The notes under the pieces are model-generated. The model made no database searches, was not told the DNA's origin, and saw only the letters and a program-made list of their open reading frames with translations. DNA of 64,000 bases. Source: a bacterium. GTDB lineage: Bacteria > Patescibacteriota > Gracilibacteria > Peribacterales > Peribacteraceae. Shown piece after piece: positions 5,652 through 64,000 of this stretch; the stretch's first letter is position 1, and each line of letters opens with the position of its first letter. The position numbers were made by a program, and so were the translations under genes. The DNA is taken from NCBI GenBank assembly GCA_027623015.1, contig JAQBVR010000001.1, positions 14,773 to 78,772 of the forward strand, read 5' to 3'.

Positions 5652-6179
5652 TTGATCCCTAACCAGAACAAGCGTAGCTTGCTTCCAATTTTTATGCGTG
5701 AACAATTACTTCAACCAGAGGTGATCGAAAGTCTAGCGGTTCCAGATTCTGACAACCTCCGTCTAGAACTTTTGTGCACTGGGGGAATTGGCAATAGCTA
5801 TGCGATACCAGCATTGCCAATGAGAGAATCTCACTTGTATACATCTAGACGTATGATAGATAGCAGCGGTGAACATCCGAGAAACATTCTTTGGTCTAGG
5901 AGTACTTTACGTAAATGGTCTCCAGAATCTAATGAGATGGATGTAAGTAGCATTGTACATTTAATCGAACAAGATCGAAACATACTTGGTCGCAATCTAG
6001 CAAAAATGGTTGAAATCGGAATAGATGAATACCTCAGACTATATGCTGGAAAAGATCCACAAAATTGCCTAGAAAAAGATCTTTTTAGAATTTGTGAAAT
6101 GATACGATTGACCAAAGATGGGCTACTCTTAGTCTTCAATGGAGACATAAGACTGGTGCCTATCTCTGATGATGCGTAA
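5652..6179 (+). CDS. Hypothetical protein
   Basis: 175-aa ORF with a TTG start as listed and no recognisable motif. The antisense ORF 5831..6148 has S/L/R-rich composition typical of a shadow frame. Confidence 0.45.
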   Translation: MIPNQNKRSLLPIFMREQLLQPEVIESLAVPDSDNLRLELLCTGGIGNSYAIPALPMRESHLYTSRRMIDSSGEHPRNILWSRSTLRKWSPESNEMDVSSIVHLIEQDRNILGRNLAKMVEIGIDEYLRLYAGKDPQNCLEKDLFRICEMIRLTKDGLLLVFNGDIRLVPISDDA

Positions 6180-6669
6180 GCACTCCTTCTGCAACATGCC
6201 CAGCAGGTGCAGGATCACCGTCGTCAGGCTCAAGAGTGATGACGACTTTTGTGTATCCTGTTAGGTTCTTGTCTGTTTCAAACTGAATGAAGTGTCGTAC
6301 ATCTCCGAAGCGGCTCTTTGCATGACCTGTGCTGATGACATCTCCATCTTTGATGATCCACCCCTCGTAGAAGTATCCATCTTCCGGACGTTTAATATTG
6401 AGCTGAGCTGTGTGAAGAGAGGCACCATCTGCATATACATGCACCTGTGCAACACCATTGGCAATAGCTGCTTCTACTCCCGTTAGAGACCCAATGGCAA
6501 ACCATTCTTCTTGCCCATGTTTGAGGTCTGCTACCTTTCCCCCTGTAGGCATAGGCTTGCGGATCACCTCGACATTATCGACGCCATTAAATCCGACTTC
6601 AACATCGACTGTATCTCCACATGCAGAGAGCAGGAGTACAAAAGCCAGCGCTCGGAAGATCTTCTTCAT
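6160..6669 (-). CDS. Putative lipoprotein, function unknown
   Basis: MKKIFRALAFVLLLSACGD carries a lipobox (L-S-A-C). The rest is beta-rich. CATAGTAC lies just upstream of the ATG. Confidence 0.65.
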   Translation of the reverse strand: MKKIFRALAFVLLLSACGDTVDVEVGFNGVDNVEVIRKPMPTGGKVADLKHGQEEWFAIGSLTGVEAAIANGVAQVHVYADGASLHTAQLNIKRPEDGYFYEGWIIKDGDVISTGHAKSRFGDVRHFIQFETDKNLTGYTKVVITLEPDDGDPAPAGHVAEGVLTHHQR

Positions 6670-6692: not shown

Positions 6693-8696
6693 CTACCATA
6701 AGAATCCTGGAGCACGAGAGCGAATCTTGTTCCTTTCGAGTTTAGCATTGTGGTCCACTCTGGCTGCAAGCACTTCGTAGAGCGGCGCTTCTCGTCGGTA
6801 GATACGTGCAAAGGTATCTGCCAGATCTATGAAATCCTCTACATTTGGCGATAGGGCTATGAAGTGGGTGTTCTTTGTGATGGCATCCGCAAAGCCACGT
6901 AAGAGTACATCGACTTCTTCTCGACGATCATCTACAGATTTGCGACCACCTCTATCGAGTTCTATAGCGATGATACCACCCATAATTCCAATGTCATTAA
7001 ACCCACCAAGTGATAAAGCATGTTCGTAGTCCTCAATCGCACCTTGTGTTTCACTTTGAAGATTGCGCAGAGCAGCGCGCCTCTTCCATGCCCGAGCATC
7101 TTCTCCGTTCCTTTTGAAGTACTCCGCAATAGCATCATTTGCTCTGCCATACTTACCCATATCTGTAAGGATCTCTGCCCTACTAAGTTGTAAGTCTCTT
7201 GCAAAGAGCTCACCCGAAGCTCTGTTGAACCAGATCATAGCAGCCTCAGAGTCCCCTGCTGCTTGCGCATGACGCCCTACAGATGATAGTACTAGATACC
7301 CTCCTTCAAGGATTGCGAAAGTAAGAAATATAATAGCTATTACCATCTCTGTGTGTCGTGCGATATACGCTGGAGCTCGCTTTGCCTTAGCCCACTCTAT
7401 GCGACTTGCTAGTACTCCAAGGAGTAACCAAAAGAGCATCGCTATAGAAACGAACTGCATGTTATAGTCTATGAGGTTGTGTGCCAGAGATCCCGCTAAG
7501 GCTACGCTAAGGAGTACACCAAAAGAGGCATGGTGTGGCCGTATAAATTCCTTTTTAAACTCTCCCTGTAAACCAGAGAGCATAACAGATCCAAAGAGCA
7601 CGAGAAGTGCAATAGCAACAGGCCAACCACGTTCGGCAGCAGCTTTTAGAAACACATTGTGTGGATGGTCTGATGTTGCTAGGACAGTAGTTTGGAATCG
7701 AGGTTGTACAAATCTGAAACTATACGGACCCCAACCAAACAGCGGCTTCTGGTTTGCTAGTGCTATAGCTTGCACCCAGAATTCTTGGCGCTCAGACACA
7801 GAGGATACACCTTCGTCTGCTGAGAACGTTACCTTTTCATTTACGGATATCACGTCATGTACGCGTTGCCTGAGAGCATTGGCAGCGCTGAAGTATGTCA
7901 GTGCAACAAGGAAGATGCCAGCTGTAACTGCAAGAACCTTTTTCCATGGAAAAGACTTTTTGAAGATGAAACCGTATAACGCTCCAAGTAGTACAAGCTG
8001 GCCACACAGTGCGATAGTTGCTCCGCGTGAGTAACTCAAGAAGAACGAGCCAAGCACGATGCCAACAGCGACACACCTTACCGCTGTATCTATGACTGTT
8101 TGCCTGTCCAGTTTAACAAAGCTCCACCCGCGAAATGCCCAGTAATAGACAAAAGGCCATGTCAGAAGTACAAAGTTGCTCCATGCATTTGGCCAGTAGT
8201 CAGTATGAAACCTCGCATCAAAGAATGTACCAACAAAGCGGTTTACTGGTTGCAATGTGTAGACAGCAAATCCGATACCACATGCAGTAAGTGTTACTAT
8301 CGCAATAGTACGAATGAGCTGAAGAAGAGTCTTATCGTAGAGTCTTTTATTCTGCGATGCCGTAAGTCGAACGACCCAAAGAAAAAGTAGTCCACAGGCT
8401 CCTGTTCGTAAGAGTTCGTCGAACCCATAATTTTGCGTACTTGAGAATGCAAAACTTATGAAGGTCCAACATATGAGAAAAATAACTGGTGCCCACAGCG
8501 CAAGATGAACACTGTCTTTTGCGTCTGTCCTCTTGAGAGTTTTATGAAGAAAGATAGTAAGAGCAAAAACAGCGCCAGCAAATATCCATGTTGACTCAAG
8601 ACTCTTGCCTCCTTTCCAAAGAACAGCAAAAGCAATCAGGGCAAAGATCCCATGGATGATATGATCTGTGGTGAGCGGTTTTCGAAGAAACTGCAT
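6693..8696 (-). CDS. O-antigen ligase-like (Wzy_C family) polytopic membrane protein with C-terminal TPR-like region
   Basis: More than 10 predicted TM helices. The loop SDHPHNVFLKAAAERGWP matches the conserved H-x-H-N...G signature of O-antigen ligase/polymerase domains. The C-terminal soluble part has TPR-like repeats (AIAEYFKRNGEDARAWKRRAALRNL, AIEDYEHALSLG). Confidence 0.7.
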   Translation of the reverse strand: MQFLRKPLTTDHIIHGIFALIAFAVLWKGGKSLESTWIFAGAVFALTIFLHKTLKRTDAKDSVHLALWAPVIFLICWTFISFAFSSTQNYGFDELLRTGACGLLFLWVVRLTASQNKRLYDKTLLQLIRTIAIVTLTACGIGFAVYTLQPVNRFVGTFFDARFHTDYWPNAWSNFVLLTWPFVYYWAFRGWSFVKLDRQTVIDTAVRCVAVGIVLGSFFLSYSRGATIALCGQLVLLGALYGFIFKKSFPWKKVLAVTAGIFLVALTYFSAANALRQRVHDVISVNEKVTFSADEGVSSVSERQEFWVQAIALANQKPLFGWGPYSFRFVQPRFQTTVLATSDHPHNVFLKAAAERGWPVAIALLVLFGSVMLSGLQGEFKKEFIRPHHASFGVLLSVALAGSLAHNLIDYNMQFVSIAMLFWLLLGVLASRIEWAKAKRAPAYIARHTEMVIAIIFLTFAILEGGYLVLSSVGRHAQAAGDSEAAMIWFNRASGELFARDLQLSRAEILTDMGKYGRANDAIAEYFKRNGEDARAWKRRAALRNLQSETQGAIEDYEHALSLGGFNDIGIMGGIIAIELDRGGRKSVDDRREEVDVLLRGFADAITKNTHFIALSPNVEDFIDLADTFARIYRREAPLYEVLAARVDHNAKLERNKIRSRAPGFLW

Positions 8697-8785: not shown

Positions 8786-8990
8786 TCCGTCTACGTTCTG
8801 AGGAACTTCGGACGGGTGAATGACTCAATAATTGATTATTCTGGTAAGATGTTTGTACAGTGCCGACCCTCCTACGCTGAAGCTTCGAAGGGCAGGCGTG
8901 GCGGCCCGCCTTCGTCCGCTGCGGCGGACTTCGGACGGGTGAATGACTCAATAATTGATTATTCTGGTAAGATGTTTGTACAGTGCCGAC
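8786..8990 (+). repeat. Reiterated leader modules upstream of tRNA-Leu(CAG): an identical 63-nt block at 8805..8867 and 8928..8990, plus three related GC-rich hairpins (8786..8816, 8867..8892, 8905..8939)
   Basis: Direct comparison of the sequence. Both 63-nt blocks read ACTTCGGACGGGTGAATGACTCAATAATTGATTATTCTGGTAAGATGTTTGTACAGTGCCGAC. The hairpins share the CCC[G/T]CC-T(A/T)CG...CTTCG-GA[C/A]GGG architecture. Confidence 0.85.
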
Positions 8991-9070
8991 GTGGCGGAAT
9001 GGTAGACGCGCACGCTTCAGAAGCGTGTAGGAGTATTCCTGTGAGAGTTCAACTCTCTCCGTCGGCACCA
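8985..9070 (+). tRNA. tRNA-Leu (anticodon CAG), class II, CCA encoded
   Basis: Acceptor GCCGACG/CGTCGGC. D-arm GTGGCGGAATGGTAGACGC. Anticodon stem-loop CACGC-TTCAGAA-GCGTG. Long variable arm. T-arm GAGAG-TTCAACT-CTCTC. Terminal ACCA. Confidence 0.92.
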
Positions 9071-9139
9071 ATTATTAATTCAGCTCTATTCTAAGCCATA
9101 AATAGGCTATTGAATTGTTGCTGAATTTCAAGAAGTAGG

Positions 9140-9145
9140 CATAAT
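9140..9145 (+). promoter_or_regulatory. -10 box CATAAT, 7 nt upstream of ATG 9153 (leaderless-type promoter)
   Basis: The sequence reads GGCATAAT TATATCT ATG. There is no Shine-Dalgarno sequence. Confidence 0.45.
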
Positions 9146-9152
9146 TATATCT

Positions 9153-12100
9153 ATGGTCTTACAGGGAGTTGATTTCAATGGCATGGGAGAATTAGAAAGA
9201 GCTGAAATCTCTGAATTGTGGCATTATGGAGACGAGGTAACTAGAAGAAACATCTTTGATCGACTATATGGAGAAGCTGAGTCTGGGCTTGTTGAGGCTA
9301 GAGCAAATGTAAATGGAGGTACTACTAGTGAATTTGATGCTGAGATGCTGCAAATAAGTCAGAATGCACTTGATGGGAATCGAAGAGTGATGGGAAATCT
9401 TCTTGAAAATGCTCCAGGACTTACCAAAAAGAAGGCTGCTGAATGGACAAGGTACATGAGTGATAGACAAGAAGGATTTCGTAGAAACTTTGATCAAGCT
9501 ATAGAAGTGACAAACAGAGTTGCAGATCGTCTCGAAAGTCTAGGGACTCCTTTTGATTTTACTGATATGGAGCAGTTTACTATATTTCAATCAAGCATAG
9601 GTGAAGCTAGAGAAGCAAATGACAGTGAATTGGCTGTAATAGAGAAACTGAGAAATAACCACCCAAGAGCTGCTGAACGGCGAGAGTTTCTGGTGCAGGA
9701 CAACAAATATCTGAGACAAGCGTCAAAAGACTATACTCAAGCTAAAAAACAGTTCCCACTTAAAGAAGCATCTATACAAACGAATCAAGCGATGCGGAAA
9801 TTTAGAGACCATAAATCCTTGGACGATTGCAAAACATTTTATGAGGTTCGAAGTTTTCGTGAAACTCTTAAAAGTGCATGGAATACGAATGCACAGGAAT
9901 CTGAGATCATCGATGAGCTAAAATTTGAGCACCCACAGAAGGAAAACAGACTAGATACGCTACAAGCAAACTATGAGGTTCTACAGCCTTTAGGAAAGCC
10001 CACAGAAGAAAGATTTAGCATGCTGAAGCAAACAACTCCTGAGATAGAGCTCGTTGACGATATGGAAGATCGTTTTGCTGCTGTCATCGAAGGGCGTCGT
10101 CCTGAAATGGAAAAAGCTCAAAAGATTGCATCTGACATAAAAGCTGCAATGAAAGAAGATCCTGACCCCATAAAGCTCTACCTGACAGAGATGGGCGCAG
10201 TACCACTACTCAAACGTCCAGATGAAGATGAGCTTTCGTATTTATTCGAACAGTCAGAACTTGCACGAAGGCAGCATGCTCTCACCTCTCCATTTCTTGT
10301 TGAGCGAGCCATCTCTATGATAAACAGAGTACGAGATGGAACACTCCCCGCTGAGCGAACCATGGAGATAAATGCTACAAAGGGTCAGCTACTGCGATAT
10401 GGAGCATCTGAAGAAGAAGTAGCTGAACTTAAGAAAAGAGAATATCCTGGAGTAAATCCTGTGGCTGCAATGGAACGCTACGAAGGCCATATGAAACTAA
10501 TACAGAAACTACAAGAAAGATGTAAATCCAACTATACGACTATGCGATCTGCACAAAGTGCTGAAAAGGGAGTGAAAGCTAAGGAAGCACGAGATAGTGA
10601 CCTTCTGAAAATCTCTATGTTACTCGATGAGATGTCGATACGACGCGATAAGTTTGAGCCGCACATTAAGTCTCTCAAAGAGATACTTTCTAGAATGGAA
10701 ACTCTTCAATCTGCAATTGAGATTACAGACAAAAGTTATGGCCCAGGAGGAAGAATGCAGTACCCGAAAGATCAGATCACTCTTACCGAATCTATAGTCT
10801 CACCACCTGGAGTGCGACGTGCTATAAAGGGAAGAGTAGTGATGCAATCTGCTGGTAAAGATGTTGAGCGAACAATTGTCACAGACTACTCTGGAGAATT
10901 TGGAAGACTACAAAAACCAGCTGCTCATGCAGTATTCAAAAGTGGATCGAATTCGAAAGGTGCTGCTGCAGACCCTGCTCGCATAGAGGCAAAAAGAGTC
11001 ATGGAGCAAGAACTTCAAACTCTTGTTGAAATGACACAGCAAACACCTGAAGAGCTCCGAGTATGGATGGAAAAGTATGACAAGATTGTTAAATTGAATA
11101 GTCGAGTTTCTGATGAGCGTGTTACTGCTAACTTACGTCTAGTCATTCACAACGCAAAGAAGTACAGACATAGAGGACTTGATTTTCTTGAACTGATCCA
11201 AGAAGGAAGCGCAGGACTTTTGCGTGCAGAGACAAAGTTTGAGCCAAGAAAGGGGTTTAAGTATTCAACATACGCAACATGGTGGATCAAACAAGCATGT
11301 GGTCGCGCTGTTGCAGACCATGCTCGACTCATCCGTATCCCCGTTCACAACATAGCTGTATTTAAACACATCAAAACGATAAATGACGACTACCTCAACA
11401 CACTAGGACGGGACGCAACTACGGAAGAGATTCATGCCAAGCTTCCAGAGCTCATGGCAAAGCCACCAGACTTCACTACTCTGCAAGAGCTACGCACTAT
11501 TTGGAAGAATCCTTCCTCTCTCGATGCTCCTGTTGGAGAAGATGGTGGATCTTCTACTGGAGACTTTGTAGCTGATAATAAAAGTAGTGCATCTATGAGT
11601 GCAGCGGAAAACAGATTGCTTGGTGACCAATTCGATACGCTACTACGCAATGTCGATAAACGAAGTGGAGACATCGTTAAGCTGCGCTTTGGGCTCGCTA
11701 GTAAAGTTGTCATTTCTGTGCAACGAAAGGTTTTTATCGAGTTTTTGACTTCGAAAGCAGGCACTGTAGGAGAGCGTGAAGGTGACTCCCCTGCTGGCTT
11801 TATCACCATTGATGGCATAGCGATTATTGAAAGTGATTTTGTACAAGCGGAAGGAGAATATGACGTTTCCGACATTGAAGATGCTTACCTTGAAACAGAT
11901 GAGACTATCGAGAACTCTACTCTTGAAGCAGTCGTTACTACTGCTGCCGACGAGCCAGAAGGTACTACTGACCAGCAAGATGAAGAGCCTGCTGAAGAAC
12001 TAGATTCGACTGGGAATACAATTGACGAGAATACGATCACATTTACAATATCTGGATACCCTTGCACTCTTGAACAAACTGGAAAGCTCCACGGCGTAAC

Positions 12101-12221
12101 TCGAGAGCGCATACGTCAGATAGAAAAGAAGGCACTCAAAAGACTAACTGCAGATGCAACTCGCACTGGAATGGAAAGCCACTTTGAGCCAGAGGGTGCT
12201 AAAGACGACGATGAACTCTAA
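9153..12221 (+). CDS. Giant (1022 aa) sigma-70 family factor with N-terminal extension and two large insertions
   Basis: Region 1.2: YLTEMGAVPLLKRPDEDE. Region 2: [73 protein letters not shown]. Region 3/4.1: SLDAPVGEDGGSSTGDFVAD...DIVKLRFGL. Region 4.2 HTH: [27 protein letters not shown]. Confidence 0.85.
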   Translation: MVLQGVDFNGMGELERAEISELWHYGDEVTRRNIFDRLYGEAESGLVEARANVNGGTTSEFDAEMLQISQNALDGNRRVMGNLLENAPGLTKKKAAEWTRYMSDRQEGFRRNFDQAIEVTNRVADRLESLGTPFDFTDMEQFTIFQSSIGEAREANDSELAVIEKLRNNHPRAAERREFLVQDNKYLRQASKDYTQAKKQFPLKEASIQTNQAMRKFRDHKSLDDCKTFYEVRSFRETLKSAWNTNAQESEIIDELKFEHPQKENRLDTLQANYEVLQPLGKPTEERFSMLKQTTPEIELVDDMEDRFAAVIEGRRPEMEKAQKIASDIKAAMKEDPDPIKLYLTEMGAVPLLKRPDEDELSYLFEQSELARRQHALTSPFLVERAISMINRVRDGTLPAERTMEINATKGQLLRYGASEEEVAELKKREYPGVNPVAAMERYEGHMKLIQKLQERCKSNYTTMRSAQSAEKGVKAKEARDSDLLKISMLLDEMSIRRDKFEPHIKSLKEILSRMETLQSAIEITDKSYGPGGRMQYPKDQITLTESIVSPPGVRRAIKGRVVMQSAGKDVERTIVTDYSGEFGRLQKPAAHAVFKSGSNSKGAAADPARIEAKRVMEQELQTLVEMTQQTPEELRVWMEKYDKIVKLNSRVSDERVTANLRLVIHNAKKYRHRGLDFLELIQEGSAGLLRAETKFEPRKGFKYSTYATWWIKQACGRAVADHARLIRIPVHNIAVFKHIKTINDDYLNTLGRDATTEEIHAKLPELMAKPPDFTTLQELRTIWKNPSSLDAPVGEDGGSSTGDFVADNKSSASMSAAENRLLGDQFDTLLRNVDKRSGDIVKLRFGLASKVVISVQRKVFIEFLTSKAGTVGEREGDSPAGFITIDGIAIIESDFVQAEGEYDVSDIEDAYLETDETIENSTLEAVVTTAADEPEGTTDQQDEEPAEELDSTGNTIDENTITFTISGYPCTLEQTGKLHGVTRERIRQIEKKALKRLTADATRTGMESHFEPEGAKDDDEL

Positions 12222-13660
12222 TACAACTTCAACGTCACATTACTCGGTGTTGAGATAGTTGTATCTCCTGTTGCGTTACTCAGTTTGACGTTCACTGTTT
12301 CTCCACCATCTGAAAGTACATCTTTGTAAATAGTAATGTTGAACCATTTGCGAGACTCTCCATCGCGGAAGATCAGTGTGCTGTCTGCAGTTTCGTAGTC
12401 AGTGCCAGCACCTGCAGAACCTGGGATAGTTTCGTAGTGAACGCTTGCTTCACCTTTTGCTCCTCCAGTGCGGTTTACTGTTATGGTAGCAAAGCCATCT
12501 GATTCTGTTCCTTCATAGCTAGAGTTTTCGAATCGGAATGCTCCTTCATTATATGTTCCAACTTCGTTATCAAAGATCTTGAGCACAGACGTAGAGACAA
12601 GGCCAAGCTCAGAACCCCCTGTCGGCAGAGTTAATGATAGATTTACTGTCTTATTTCCTCCGATAGAGCTGTTATCTTCTATGCCTACGGTAAATGTCTT
12701 CGATGTAACTCCATTGCCAAACTCGAGAACTTCACTTGTTTTTGAATAATCAATACCTGTCTGTGCTGTTCCATCGGTCATAAGGTACTTTACTGATGCC
12801 GAACCTTTGCTTCCTCCTATTCTTTCTATGGTTACAGTAACATCACCTTGGTCCTCTGATGCACTGTACTCCATTGCGCTAAATACGAAACTCCCCTCCT
12901 CTGGACCCGAATTACTCACTGCTGCTGCAGACGAACTACTTGCAGACTCATCATCTCTAATAGTGACTGTTACTTCTGTCGGCGTCGAGAAGCCTGCACC
13001 ACCTGTAGCATTTTTGATGATAAGATTAATGGTCTCGTCATCCTCTTGATCTGTATCATTCTTGATACCAATTTCTATCGTTTTACTTGTCTCACCGTCA
13101 TTGAACTGCAATGTACCAATTATCGGTTCATAGTCTATGTCTTTTGTGGCTGTACCATCGCTCGTCTCATACTCGACAACGACCACCCCCGTCTTTCCTC
13201 CTGTACGTACGACAGTAACTCGTGCTGTTTCTTCGTCCTCATCTACAGAATAATTATCTGTGGTAAACCTGAGCATCCCTTCTGGACTGACTGAGGATAC
13301 AGAGAATTGAGAAGACTCAGAAGACTGAGAGGAGGATGAGCTGCTGGATCGTGTACGTGTTCGAACCGATGAGGAGGAGGATGCTTCTGGCGTGATACCA
13401 AGGACATCATTACGAAGACGCTGCAATAGAACTGCTGCTTGCCCCCGAGTAAGATTTTCATTCGGCTTAAAGGTTCCATCATTAAACCCTGTAATAATAC
13501 CAAGGTCATACATCTCCCCTATTGCATCATCATAGTATGATCCTGAATCTACATCTGGAAAAATGGTGGAGCCAAGTAGACTTGCACCAAGACTGGTACC
13601 GACTACTCCTACGAAGGTACCCATAGCAAAGACGCCAATATAAATATGTCTCTTATTCAT
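12218..13660 (-). CDS. S-layer-homology (SLH) domain protein with four Calx-beta repeats
   Basis: N-terminal signal/TM sequence. SLH motif: YYDDAIGEMYDLGIITGFNDGTFKPNENLTRGQAAVLLQRL. Ser-rich linker. Four Calx-beta units follow, for example TSDGTATKDIDYEPIIGTLQFNDGETSKTIEIGIKNDTDQEDDETINL and MTDGTAQTGIDYSKTSEVLEFGNGVTSKTFTVGIEDN. Confidence 0.8.
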   Translation of the reverse strand: MNKRHIYIGVFAMGTFVGVVGTSLGASLLGSTIFPDVDSGSYYDDAIGEMYDLGIITGFNDGTFKPNENLTRGQAAVLLQRLRNDVLGITPEASSSSSVRTRTRSSSSSSSQSSESSQFSVSSVSPEGMLRFTTDNYSVDEDEETARVTVVRTGGKTGVVVVEYETSDGTATKDIDYEPIIGTLQFNDGETSKTIEIGIKNDTDQEDDETINLIIKNATGGAGFSTPTEVTVTIRDDESASSSSAAAVSNSGPEEGSFVFSAMEYSASEDQGDVTVTIERIGGSKGSASVKYLMTDGTAQTGIDYSKTSEVLEFGNGVTSKTFTVGIEDNSSIGGNKTVNLSLTLPTGGSELGLVSTSVLKIFDNEVGTYNEGAFRFENSSYEGTESDGFATITVNRTGGAKGEASVHYETIPGSAGAGTDYETADSTLIFRDGESRKWFNITIYKDVLSDGGETVNVKLSNATGDTTISTPSNVTLKLY

Positions 13661-61789: not shown

Positions 61790-63223
61790 CTATGCCATCT
61801 TCTTGTCTTTCATCTCTTCTACACCAAAGTCTGGATCGAAGAACGGATTGCTAGGAACAAATCCTGCTCTCTTTGGAGCCTCACCGTGCTCACGAATAGT
61901 CATTGAACGTGGATGGTCACGCATTTTCTGGAGCACTTTTGCTTCGATCTGACGGATTCGCTCACGTGTAACACCAAACTCTTTTCCTACCTCCTCCAGA
62001 GTGTGTCCGATACCATCACTGAGTCCAAATCGCATCTCAACGATCTTACGTTCACGTGGAGTGAGGAACTCTAACATGGAGTGTACGTTTTCCTTCTTGA
62101 GCTGACGGCTTGTTGCATCAAAGGGATTGATGGCCTCCTCATCTTCGATAAAGTCTCCAAGCTTACTATCTTCTTCACTTCCAACTGGAGACTCAAGTGA
62201 GATGATATCTTGGCTGATCTTCTGAATGTGACGCACTTTTTTCACGTCCATCTCCATCTCAACAGATAGCTCTTCTACAGTTGGCTCACGTCCAAGCTCT
62301 TGTACGAGACGACGTTGTGTATGTGTAAGCTTATTAATGGTCTCTACCATGTGCACTGGAATACGAATAGTACGCGCTTGGTCTGCAATTGCACGCGTGA
62401 TAGCCTGACGTATCCACCATGTCGCATATGTAGAGAATTTAAATCCACGCTCTGGGTCAAACTTCTCTACAGCACGAAAGAGTCCGATATTTCCCTCTTG
62501 GATAAGATCTAGGAATGAAAGTCCGCGGCCAATGTACTTCTTTGCTATAGAAACAACCAATCGAAGGTTTGCTTCAGCAAGTTGTTGTTTTGCAGATGCG
62601 TCACCTTTGCGGATGCGACGAGCAAGCTCTACTTCTTTTTTTGCATCAATCAGTGGAACACGACCTATCTCTGAGAGATACATTCGTACGGAGTCATTGC
62701 TGATCTCAAGAAGGTCTACCTCTCGCTCACGTCGACGCTTTGTCTTTTCCTCTTCATTAATATCTTTCTCATCTATGGCAATACCAGCTGTAGCAATCAT
62801 ATCACGCATTTCATCATTCTTATCACTCTTCTCCACCTTAGATTCGACATCTTCGGTATCGTCGTCATCGTCGTCATCGTCATCAAATCCAATATCGACA
62901 TCGACATCGACATCTGCATCGTCTGAACTAACGATCTCTGTAAGGTCTTCTGTAGGTTCACCAATATCTGCTTTTGTTTTCTTCTGCCATATAAGAGCGT
63001 CTTTTACATCGATTACTTGAATACCAAGATCCACGAGCAATGAGTAAATATCATCAAGTAGATCGACGTTTGTCTCTGCGTTTGGCACCACAGCCATAAT
63101 TTCTTGATGTGTCACATATCGTTGTTCTCTGCCTTTTTTAATCAAATGCCTTACCTCATCAGGAAAACCTTTCAGATCTTCATCTGTTGGTTGCGCGATG
63201 AATTTACGTGGATGCGAAGCCAT
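61790..63223 (-). CDS. rpoD: Primary sigma factor RpoD
   Basis: From ATG 63223 (MASHPRKF...). It has an acidic region 1.1 and region 1.2 [23 protein letters not shown]. Region 2: [73 protein letters not shown]. Region 4.2: [27 protein letters not shown]. Confidence 0.93.
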
Positions 63224-63370
63224 AAGTCCGAAGTAGCCTAAACCTCTTCTCTGTATAAGGAAAGTGAATTTATGGGGAAATAGGGCAAAATTGAGAAGAT
63301 GCAGATGAGTTAGAGGATGTAGAGGATACAGATGAAATGCTATAATTCTTTGCATCTTTTGAATCTTTCG

Positions 63371-64000
63371 TCAGGTAGCCATCTTCGCCAATTTCAGGAC
63401 TTCTTGATATTTGGTAGAGAGTTGAGCCTCATCGCCAAATCTTCCTTCTGCTTTTGCCTTTGCTAGTTCCTTGGCAATCTCCTTCTGTTTATGCTGTAGA
63501 ATGTTGCGATTCGCTACTGTGCAATTTTTTTTGAGTTCACGTTGAGCTGTGGATTCAGACCAATCTGACATATCATGATTTTCACAATACAAAAGAAGTA
63601 TACCTACACGCTCTGCGTCTTCCCCTTCAAGTCCAAGTGTTTCTGCAGTAAACAGCTTTAGATCTTCTGGTGCACTTTTTATTGCTTCATATAGCACAGC
63701 ACTAAATCCCTCATCTGGTGGTAAAAGCTTCTCTATCATACTGCGCAATGTTGGATAGAGGAGAAAGATGCCCATGACGACTTCTGTTGCGGATAAGTGT
63801 TTCTTCTTTTCTGCCTGACGTTCACTACTTGTTGGCTCTACATATGTTGGAAAGATCTGCTTCTGCTGTAGTCTTTCGAGATCTTCTTTTAGCGCAGTCT
63901 CGCTAGTTTGTAAAACACCAGCGGCTTTTGTGAAGTAATGTTCACGTTCTACAGAAGTTGGAATCGACTCCATCAGCGGATATAAGATTTTCATAGCATC
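63371..64000 (-). CDS. dnaG: Probable DNA primase DnaG, C-terminal region (5' end outside window)
   Basis: The frame is open to the window edge. The position immediately upstream of rpoD matches the widespread dnaG-rpoD arrangement. The helical C-terminal sequence has little diagnostic conservation, so this call rests mainly on synteny. Confidence 0.5.
   Translation of the reverse strand, partial: DAMKILYPLMESIPTSVEREHYFTKAAGVLQTSETALKEDLERLQQKQIFPTYVEPTSSERQAEKKKHLSATEVVMGIFLLYPTLRSMIEKLLPPDEGFSAVLYEAIKSAPEDLKLFTAETLGLEGEDAERVGILLLYCENHDMSDWSESTAQRELKKNCTVANRNILQHKQKEIAKELAKAKAEGRFGDEAQLSTKYQEVLKLAKMAT

Follow-up and report, generated by a model that had tools for sequence, protein, structure and literature searches.

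The window analysed here, a 64,000-nucleotide stretch of a Peribacteraceae genome (GenBank assembly GCA_027623015.1, contig JAQBVR010000001.1, positions 14,773 to 78,772), contains a canonical rpoD gene and, in addition, an open reading frame (ORF) for a sigma-70 family protein of 1022 aa, referred to below as the giant sigma. The locus raises the question of whether this ORF encodes a genuine second sigma factor and, if so, of what kind it is and of what its additional sequence consists. A first-pass annotation of the window, made from the sequence without database searches, had taken the protein for an enlarged paralogue of RpoD whose added mass would act as built-in regulatory or tethering domains. 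The analysis described here indicates that the giant sigma is probably a functional, lineage-restricted and rapidly diverging primary-like alternative sigma factor. Its sigma core and the non-conserved region (NCR) between regions 1.2 and 2 are of known kinds; what is new is an orphan N-terminal helical repeat domain, an insertion in the loop between regions 4.1 and 4.2, and a roughly 19-fold rate excess over rpoD.

An intact orthologue at the same locus in a second sample

The giant sigma gene is one unbroken ORF of 1022 codons that begins at the first start codon past the upstream stop. Two database records carry the identical protein, an 84.6-kb contig at NCBI and a 64-kb contig at ENA; they may come from the same reads. 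A HMMER search of 1.84 billion representative proteins recovered one other full-length member of the family, P0044 (973 aa), which is 38% identical over its whole length in an alignment that spans the N-terminal extension, the inserts in the NCR and the insertion in region 4. P0044 is encoded on a 6.9-kb contig (L002) from a different sample, and its neighbours match those of the window: a Wzy_C-like gene, tRNA-Leu, the sigma gene, a convergent SLH/Calx-beta gene and groES/groEL. The same sample also holds an RpoD that is 93% identical to the RpoD of the window. An intact orthologue at the same locus in an independent sample bears out the proposal that the protein is a genuine second primary-like sigma beside a normal RpoD, and not a chimera or a frameshift fusion.

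The extent of the family rests on this exhaustive HMMER scan. A word-index search with the whole giant protein returned no more members, nor did two scans of JGI metagenome contigs and one of IMG/VR. A search with a profile of both N-terminal halves also returned none, and missed P0044 itself, so that this search is leaky here.

The giant sigma diverges faster than its neighbours and than RpoD

Divergence between the window and the sister contig or sample was compared gene by gene, as amino acid identity and as non-synonymous substitutions per site (dN). Identity was 76% for the Wzy protein (dN 0.16), 76% for the SLH/Calx-beta protein (dN 0.18), 84% for GroES (dN 0.085), 85% for the N-terminus of GroEL and 93% for RpoD (dN 0.033), against 38% for the giant sigma (dN 0.62). 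The non-synonymous divergence of the giant sigma thus exceeds that of its neighbours about 4-fold and that of rpoD about 19-fold.

Constraint is nevertheless apparent in the comparison with P0044. Over the whole protein the proportion of non-synonymous differences (pN, 0.42) is lower than that of synonymous differences (pS, 0.76), and in both orthologues the ORF of about 3 kb is unbroken. Identity is unevenly distributed: it reaches 64-71% in regions 1.2, 2 and 4.2 and is lowest in the N-terminal extension (32%) and in an insert within the NCR (26%). On these comparisons the pattern is that of a constrained, rapidly diverging functional protein, and not of a pseudogene.

Domain organisation of the giant sigma

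The anatomy of the protein was established from an alignment of eight sequences, a PDB sequence search and AlphaFold2 (AF2) models, and is summarised in Table 1. The first-pass annotation had stated that all sigma-70 core regions are recognisable, and a Pfam run agrees, finding regions 1.2, 2, 3 (under its cut-off) and a split region 4. Regions 2 and 4 score above curated cut-offs: Sigma70_r2 matches aa 657-725 (E 2e-15, 56.6 bits, cut-off 24), and Sigma70_r4 matches aa 968-998 (E 1.3e-8, 34.6 bits, cut-off 24.1) over profile positions 18-48 only. The general sigma-70 model TIGR02937 gives 82.8 bits (cut-off 42.9), placing the protein in the sigma-70 family, and E-values down to 1e-80 against the NCBIfam RpoD models exclude chance similarity. 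Region 4.2 is followed by an acidic tail of 22 aa.

Table 1. Positions in the window of the giant sigma gene, its upstream elements, the parts of its product and the canonical rpoD gene.
Feature	Residues (aa)	Window position	Strand	Basis or remark
tRNA-Leu(CAG)		8985..9070	+	ARAGORN; left border of variable slot
Promoter-like element upstream of giant sigma gene		9118..9145	+	TTGCTG 9118-9123, 16-nt spacer, CATAAT 9140-9145
Giant sigma-70 family gene	1022 + stop	9153..12221	+	NCBI MDA1208425.1
N-terminal extension, in place of region 1.1	1-337	9153..10163	+	AF2, no domain match
Internal repeat copy 1 in N-terminal extension	~144-194	9582..9734	+	Motif E..I..L+..HP...R..L
Internal repeat copy 2 in N-terminal extension	~234-284	9852..10004	+	hhalign
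Region 1.2	338-363	10164..10241	+	Pfam PF00140 Sigma70_r1_2, E 8e-6; 65% identical to P0044
NCR	364-655	10242..11117	+	HMMER, alignment, Foldseek
Family-specific insert in NCR	526-607	10728..10973	+	Absent from Planctomycetota-type sigmas
Region 2 (2.1-2.4 and start of 3.0)	656-733	11118..11351	+	Pfam PF04542
Region 3, including 3.2 finger motif DAPVGEDGGSSTGDF	734-830	11352..11642	+	Pfam PF04539 and alignments
Region 4.1, ends VKLRFGL	831-848	11643..11696	+	Alignments
Insertion in region 4.1/4.2 loop	849-971	11697..12065	+	Alignments; PDB sequence search
Acidic, disordered, variable part of region-4 insertion	906-960	11868..12032	+	Absent from P0044; pLDDT <50
Region 4.2 helix-turn-helix	972-1000	12066..12152	+	Pfam PF04545; 71% identical to P0044
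Canonical housekeeping rpoD	477	61790..63223	-	Pfam regions 1.1, 1.2, 2, 3 and 4

The long segment between regions 1.2 and 2 had been counted among the unusual additions, at about 300 aa. The spacing itself is real: 293 aa separate the Pfam boundaries, compared with about 6-38 aa in RpoD, depending on the measure used. It is not new mass, however. A HMMER search of the same 1.84 billion representatives with aa 1-610 gave about 300 matches that cover only aa ~329-523; these are sigma factors whose NCR measures about 190 aa, and the named ones belong to Pirellulaceae or Planctomycetota. The giant sigma aligns with this Planctomycetota-type NCR at E-values of ~1e-10 to 1e-8 over aa ~329-523, and the alignment picks up again at ~608-655. 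The best Foldseek match of the full-length model is E. coli sigma70 including its NCR (E 1e-14, 515-700 columns). The alphaproteobacterial RpoDs compared have an even longer spacing between regions 1.2 and 2 (330-332 aa, against ~320 aa in the giant sigma), and the Pfam Sigma70_ner model did not match the giant sigma. The segment is a helical domain between regions 1.2 and 2.1 that is homologous to other NCRs and so, by homology, aa 364-655 is the known sigma NCR, ordinary in many primary sigmas though not in the resident RpoD.

Two inserts within this NCR, at aa ~412-440 and 526-607, are specific to the giant family. The second, with 26% identity to P0044, is the most weakly conserved structured part of the protein (pN 0.59, pS 0.74), and its model contains a predicted small beta-hairpin at 561-574.

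The charged helical extension of about 340 aa described by the first-pass annotation was confirmed as 337 aa, of which 34% are charged (net charge -14), and AF2 predicts long helices throughout (pLDDT, the predicted local distance difference test, ~72). It contains an internal duplication, detected by hhalign of sub-alignments (probability 82%, E 1e-5). No relative of this domain was found: Pfam at E-values up to 10 gave only noise on the N-terminal extension, the NCR and the region-4 insertion, the PHROG collection gave no match outside the sigma core, and a PDB sequence search with a profile of the extension gave no match. Comparison of its model with PDB and BFVD returned nothing under E 0.05, with TM-scores of at most 0.33; the fold matches that appeared (spectrin repeats, 14-3-3, tape-measure proteins) were dismissed as generic helical bundles that are not significant. 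A remnant of region 1.1 was also rejected, as PF03979 did not match the extension and hhalign against a region 1.1 alignment gave a probability of 0.1%.

The further insertion noted inside region 4 was located exactly, between RFGL (ending at residue 848) and TLEQ (starting at residue 972). It takes the place of a 6-residue loop that matches D566-Y571 of E. coli sigma70, adding 117 aa net; in Streptomyces HrdB the residues that match the two flanks (465 and 466) follow directly on one another. Between RFG[LI] and TRERIRQI, the 191 sigma factors measured have a spacing of 17 aa in 187 cases and of 18 aa in two, the two remaining proteins being P0044 (80 aa) and the giant sigma (134 aa). The first ~55 aa and the last ~9 aa of the insertion are conserved in P0044, and these ends are modelled as a small alpha/beta unit in which strands 852-857 and 961-966 would join them. 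The 119-aa segment of the insertion has a net charge of -25. Its acidic tail is absent from P0044 and so cannot be essential to the function of the family. No match to the insertion was found in Pfam, PDB or PHROGs.

Conservation of functional residues

Residue roles were mapped by E. coli sigma70 numbering, which we take, together with the roles themselves, to be as established, and were checked against offsets in the eight-sequence alignment. The residues for promoter melting (E. coli Y430, W433 and W434) are kept as Y707, W710 and W711 and are also kept in P0044, as are Q437, which contacts position -12, and H455 of the extended -10 contacts. The residues that read the -35 element (E. coli R584, E585, R588 and Q589) correspond to R984, E985, R988 and Q989 and are invariant, also in P0044; in the eight-sequence alignment the region 4.2 columns T983, R984, E985, R986, R988 and Q989 are all invariant. 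The flap-side motif R562-F563-G564 is kept in the giant sigma and reads R-Y-G in P0044, with F563 changed to Y. Two positions of the upstream -10 reader differ from E. coli: the second -12 contact, T440, is G in the giant sigma and Q in P0044, and E458 of the extended -10 contacts is A in both.

The claim that DNA- and core-binding residues of region 2 are retained thus holds for the motifs on which it was based, YATWWIKQA and IRIPVH, both present in the giant sigma, and, in the alignment, for the melting and -35-reading residues and for the core-binding residues apart from the positions given below. Judged by these residues, the giant sigma looks like a working sigma factor that reads the -35 element in the normal way and the upstream part of the -10 element in a modified one.

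Relation to RpoD and to known classes of sigma factor

The canonical RpoD is 80-93% identical to RpoDs of organisms named Candidatus Peregrinibacteria, Peribacteria or Peribacteraceae, which assigns the window to a bacterium of this class within the candidate phyla radiation (CPR). With 372 bits it exceeds the cut-off of TIGR02393 (354). Immediately upstream of rpoD is an ORF at 63371..63994 (-), a position that dnaG holds in three relatives (L003-L005). The giant sigma is 42% identical to RpoD over regions 2 to 4.1 and 61% over region 4.2. It has no PF03979 match for region 1.1, while the RpoD of the window has one, and it shows neither the conservation across the lineage nor the dnaG-rpoD context of the canonical gene. 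The possibility that the extensions are lineage-wide features of a sole RpoD is contradicted by this conserved RpoD of ordinary size and by the absence of the giant sigma from the syntenic slot of a relative (see below). No third sigma-like gene was found in the window. The open frame of rpoD extends upstream by another 44 codons (521 aa; 61790-63355, -), although NCBI and the relatives use the 477-aa form, and RpoD carries a run of D and E, including 8 consecutive Asp, between regions 1.1 and 1.2.

A reading of the giant sigma as a duplicate of the canonical RpoD did not hold up. In addition to the missing region 1.1, a rough neighbour-joining (NJ) tree of 405 shared columns places both giants, on long branches, with the Planctomycetota-type NCR sigmas and apart from the Peregrinibacteria RpoDs. 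This placement and the shared NCR argue against a recent duplication of the resident rpoD, and favour an old transfer or an old paralogue.

Group 2 sigmas (E. coli RpoS, M. tuberculosis SigB, cyanobacterial SigB-E) are among the closest known systems. Like them, the giant sigma has regions 1.2 to 4.2 with primary-like regions 2.3 and 4.2, no region 1.1 and a separate primary sigma in the same genome. Group 2 sigmas are described as lacking region 1.1 and having a short NCR (PMC7403470); they are compact, at about 300-400 aa, whereas the giant sigma has an NCR of ~290 aa, a 337-aa orphan N-terminus and the region-4 insertion in a total of 1022 aa. In a PDB sequence search RpoS structures also score far below primary sigmas (~119 against ~180 bits). 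The likeness to NCR-bearing primary sigmas (Pirellulaceae type, E. coli sigma70) lies in the NCR, which is at the same position, is homologous and superposes in the model; those proteins differ in having region 1.1, an unbroken region 4 and a housekeeping role, and they lack the two extra inserts of the giant NCR. MzaA, a protein of 726 aa from the MZA anti-phage system, is likewise a large sigma-70 protein with extra N-terminal mass whose NCBIfam and PADLOC models match the giant sigma. Membership in MzaA was rejected because the match is far under the cut-off (215 bits against 800) and confined in PADLOC to the sigma core, and there are no Mza partner genes.

Sigma factors with fused extensions, such as C-terminally extended extracytoplasmic function (ECF) sigmas and the metagenomic protein P0042 (840 aa), also carry extra domains in cis on a sigma core. 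ECF sigmas lack regions 1.2 and 3 and their fused domains are recognisable, whereas the added parts of the giant sigma have no known fold and one of them lies inside region 4. P0042 consists of N-terminal ankyrin repeats fused to a sigma core, so that N-terminal fusions to primary-like sigmas exist. Two other oversized primary-like sigmas from metagenomes, P0048 (688 aa) and P0099 (704 aa), are extended by a long tail at the C-terminus, which in P0048 includes a second region 4.1-like segment (LALRYGL). The idea of tethering domains found no support: the giant sigma has no hydrophobic segment, the maximum Kyte-Doolittle mean over 19 residues being 1.13. With no Pfam domain in the extensions either, a membrane-tethered or anti-sigma-fused sigma was rejected. 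A search of the published literature on sigma factors of CPR bacteria and Peregrinibacteria, on region-4 insertions and on MzaA found nothing relevant.

The giant sigma gene occupies a variable slot beside a tRNA gene

As the first-pass annotation had noted, the gene lies directly downstream of a tRNA-Leu gene, 82 nt separating the tRNA from the ATG. The same tRNA-Leu(CAG) borders the slot in L002 (86% identical DNA) and in L006, a locus of Ca. Peregrinibacteria CG11_..._49_14. A scan of GTDB genomes with the SLH/Calx neighbour found 14 Peribacteria loci, of which only L006 is syntenic on both sides. There, 4.2 kb between the SLH/Calx gene and tRNA-Leu(CAG) contain no sigma gene; what lies there instead (L006 9523-13262) are genes for a TPR membrane protein of 553 aa and an Asp/Glu racemase, a GIY-YIG-like ORF of 83 aa and two further ORFs of 134 and 94 aa. 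Since this slot holds other genes, the tRNA-adjacent slot is a variable region in Peregrinibacteria. The GC content, GC content at third codon positions (GC3) and codon use of the giant sigma gene are typical of the window, so that a recent foreign origin by composition was rejected. No mobile-element genes (integrase, phage) adjoin it, the neighbours being envelope genes and groES/groEL; this, with the host-like composition, indicates that the gene is not a recent arrival.

Upstream of the gene, CATAAT ends 7 nt before the ATG and there is no Shine-Dalgarno sequence. The window and L002 share both hexamers with the same spacing, 16 nt between the two and 7 nt from CATAAT to the ATG, and the 82-nt tRNA-to-ATG spacer is conserved. 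A generic consensus promoter scan made no call here, because the -35 hexamer fits the consensus at only 3 of 6 positions. A conserved element at the ATG with no Shine-Dalgarno sequence suggests that the mRNA is leaderless or near-leaderless; conservation of the element and its spacings thus supports the leaderless-type promoter proposed earlier, as a hypothesis and short of proof. P0044 probably begins 13 codons downstream of its annotated start, as its Met14 aligns with the ATG at window position 9153; the 13 extra codons (L002 1813-1851) overlap the conserved CATAAT element.

Other features of the locus were recorded alongside. A perfect 63-nt direct repeat occurs at 8805-8867 and 8928-8990, 123 nt apart. 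Its second copy overlaps the 5' end of tRNA-Leu(CAG), and the first copy is therefore a duplicated tRNA leader that breaks off 6 nt into the tRNA gene; as L002 is dissimilar upstream of the tRNA, this duplication is specific to the window genome. At the other end, the last 4 nt of the giant sigma gene (12218-12221) are shared with the 3' end of the convergent SLH/Calx-beta gene (12218..13660, -), which leaves no space for an intervening terminator; in L002 a gap of 2 nt separates the pair. A 169-aa protein with RskA_C, the C-terminal domain of anti-sigma-K factor, is encoded at 6160-6669 (-), just downstream of a Wzy_C/TPR membrane protein gene (6693-8696, -). These two genes also lie beside the L006 slot, from which the giant sigma is absent, and therefore do not form a partner dedicated to it.

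Alternative explanations

Several points weigh against reading the giant sigma as a functional primary-like sigma factor. It scores far under all RpoD equivalog cut-offs (269.5 against 555 bits for NF004208, 230 against 354 for TIGR02393), and its Sigma70_r3 match (PF04539, aa 739-811, E 1.6e-4) is under the gathering score. Some core-binding positions are changed: the equivalent of N409 is S in both orthologues, and that of E407 is kept in the giant sigma and is C in P0044. The structure models of the inserts are of low confidence, and the NJ tree has long branches and carries no support values. Synonymous divergence (dS) is saturated in all genes, so that dN and pN/pS comparisons were used in place of dN/dS ratios, and a family of two members precludes a per-site analysis of selection.

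Part of the evidence would suit a decaying, functionless paralogue under relaxed selection, its divergence being due to drift. Identity of 38% stands against 76-93% in the neighbours, pN is near pS in the NCR insert at 526-607, the acidic stretch of 55 aa occurs in one orthologue only, and some core-binding residues are substituted. Decay nonetheless appears quite unlikely. Both ORFs of ~3 kb are uninterrupted at a dN of 0.62, where neutrality would be expected to give tens of stop codons; pN is below pS overall; conservation is focused in regions 1.2, 2 and 4.2, with the DNA-reading residues invariant; and the promoter-like element is conserved. An artefact of assembly or annotation, in which a chimeric contig or a frameshift had joined an N-terminal gene, a sigma gene and an inserted fragment, might be suspected from the unusual length, the near-singleton family and the origin of the data in a metagenome-assembled genome. 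It is highly improbable in view of an orthologue at 38% identity that carries N-terminal extension, NCR and region-4 insertion in one frame, in a different sample and between the same neighbours; the flanks are also syntenic with another Peregrinibacterium, codon use is host-like, and the identical protein stands in NCBI and ENA records, albeit possibly from the same reads.

A defence or mobile-element sigma (MzaA-like, or derived from a phage or an island), diversified in an arms race and landed beside a tRNA gene, would account for the very fast evolution and for the position in a slot whose content differs between relatives, and the NCBIfam and PADLOC MzaA models and the PHROG sigma family phrog_351 do match the protein. 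However, what PADLOC matches is confined to aa 619-848 of the sigma core, the housekeeping RpoD outscores the giant sigma against MzaA (331 against 215 bits, cut-off 800), and the gene lies among Wzy_C, SLH/Calx-beta and groES/groEL genes with no Mza partner, integrase or phage gene nearby. One scan of IMG/VR found no relatives, the N-terminal extension has no viral fold match in BFVD, and codon use is host-like, so that this origin, too, is unlikely. That the giant sigma is the true housekeeping sigma and the smaller RpoD an accessory is effectively refuted. Its best scores are against RpoD-type models and its NCR resembles that of many primary sigmas, but it is the 477-aa protein that has region 1.1, exceeds the TIGR02393 cut-off, is 80-93% conserved across the class and follows dnaG in relatives, while the giant sigma lacks region 1.1, reaches none of the RpoD cut-offs, is absent from relatives and evolves at about 19 times the rate.

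Proposed function and significance

The explanation we favour is that of an alternative sigma factor descended from primary sigmas with an NCR, a branch typical of Planctomycetota, and not from a recent copy of the resident rpoD. Domain anatomy, homologies, synteny, rates and residue conservation are matters of observation; from them we infer holoenzyme formation, promoter specificity and the roles of the added modules. In two sister Peregrinibacteria the gene lies in the variable slot between tRNA-Leu(CAG) and the gene for the SLH/Calx-beta surface protein, and its product is made up of regions 1.2, NCR, 2, 3 and 4 with no region 1.1. The protein would bind core RNA polymerase through the conserved regions 2.1/2.2, the 3.2 finger and region 4, melt the -10 element with the conserved aromatic residues of region 2.3, and read a TTGACA-like -35 element with the intact recognition helix of region 4.2. 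Reading of the -12 and extended -10 positions would be altered, given G or Q at the equivalent of T440 and A at that of E458, and RNA polymerase may consequently be sent to a subset of promoters that overlaps with, yet is distinct from, that of RpoD.

Both added modules are most plausibly regulatory, acting in autoinhibition of DNA binding by the free sigma or in partner docking. This is the most economical guess from their positions: the duplicated helical N-terminus occupies the usual place of the autoinhibitory region 1.1, and the conserved module of ~60 aa, followed by the variable acidic tail, lies beside the DNA-backbone-contacting start of the -35-contacting helix-turn-helix of region 4.2. 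A more specific version, which we consider doubtful, is a self-regulated sigma with an anti-sigma or DNA-mimic function built in, its divergence reflecting an arms race or co-evolution with a partner (phage or host cell). Equally tentative is the suggestion that such a sigma would control surface or interaction genes of a presumably episymbiotic CPR bacterium. If the self-regulated version were true, the architecture would be one not described for any sigma factor.

If the protein is inactive, the finding is an oddity of two metagenomic genomes. As it stands, fast-evolving primary-like sigmas are rare, and the giant sigma, at 38% identity in a pair of genomes whose RpoDs are 93% identical, is such a case; it also lends itself well to testing how much extra sequence a sigma scaffold can accommodate. 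The loop between regions 4.1 and 4.2 is near-fixed elsewhere (17-18 aa in 189 of the 191 proteins compared); if the giant sigma works, a spacing of 80-134 aa beside the -35-contacting residues would modulate promoter recognition in a new way. For a CPR bacterium, with its small genome and few regulators, a second, primary-like sigma factor of 1022 aa is a large regulatory investment.

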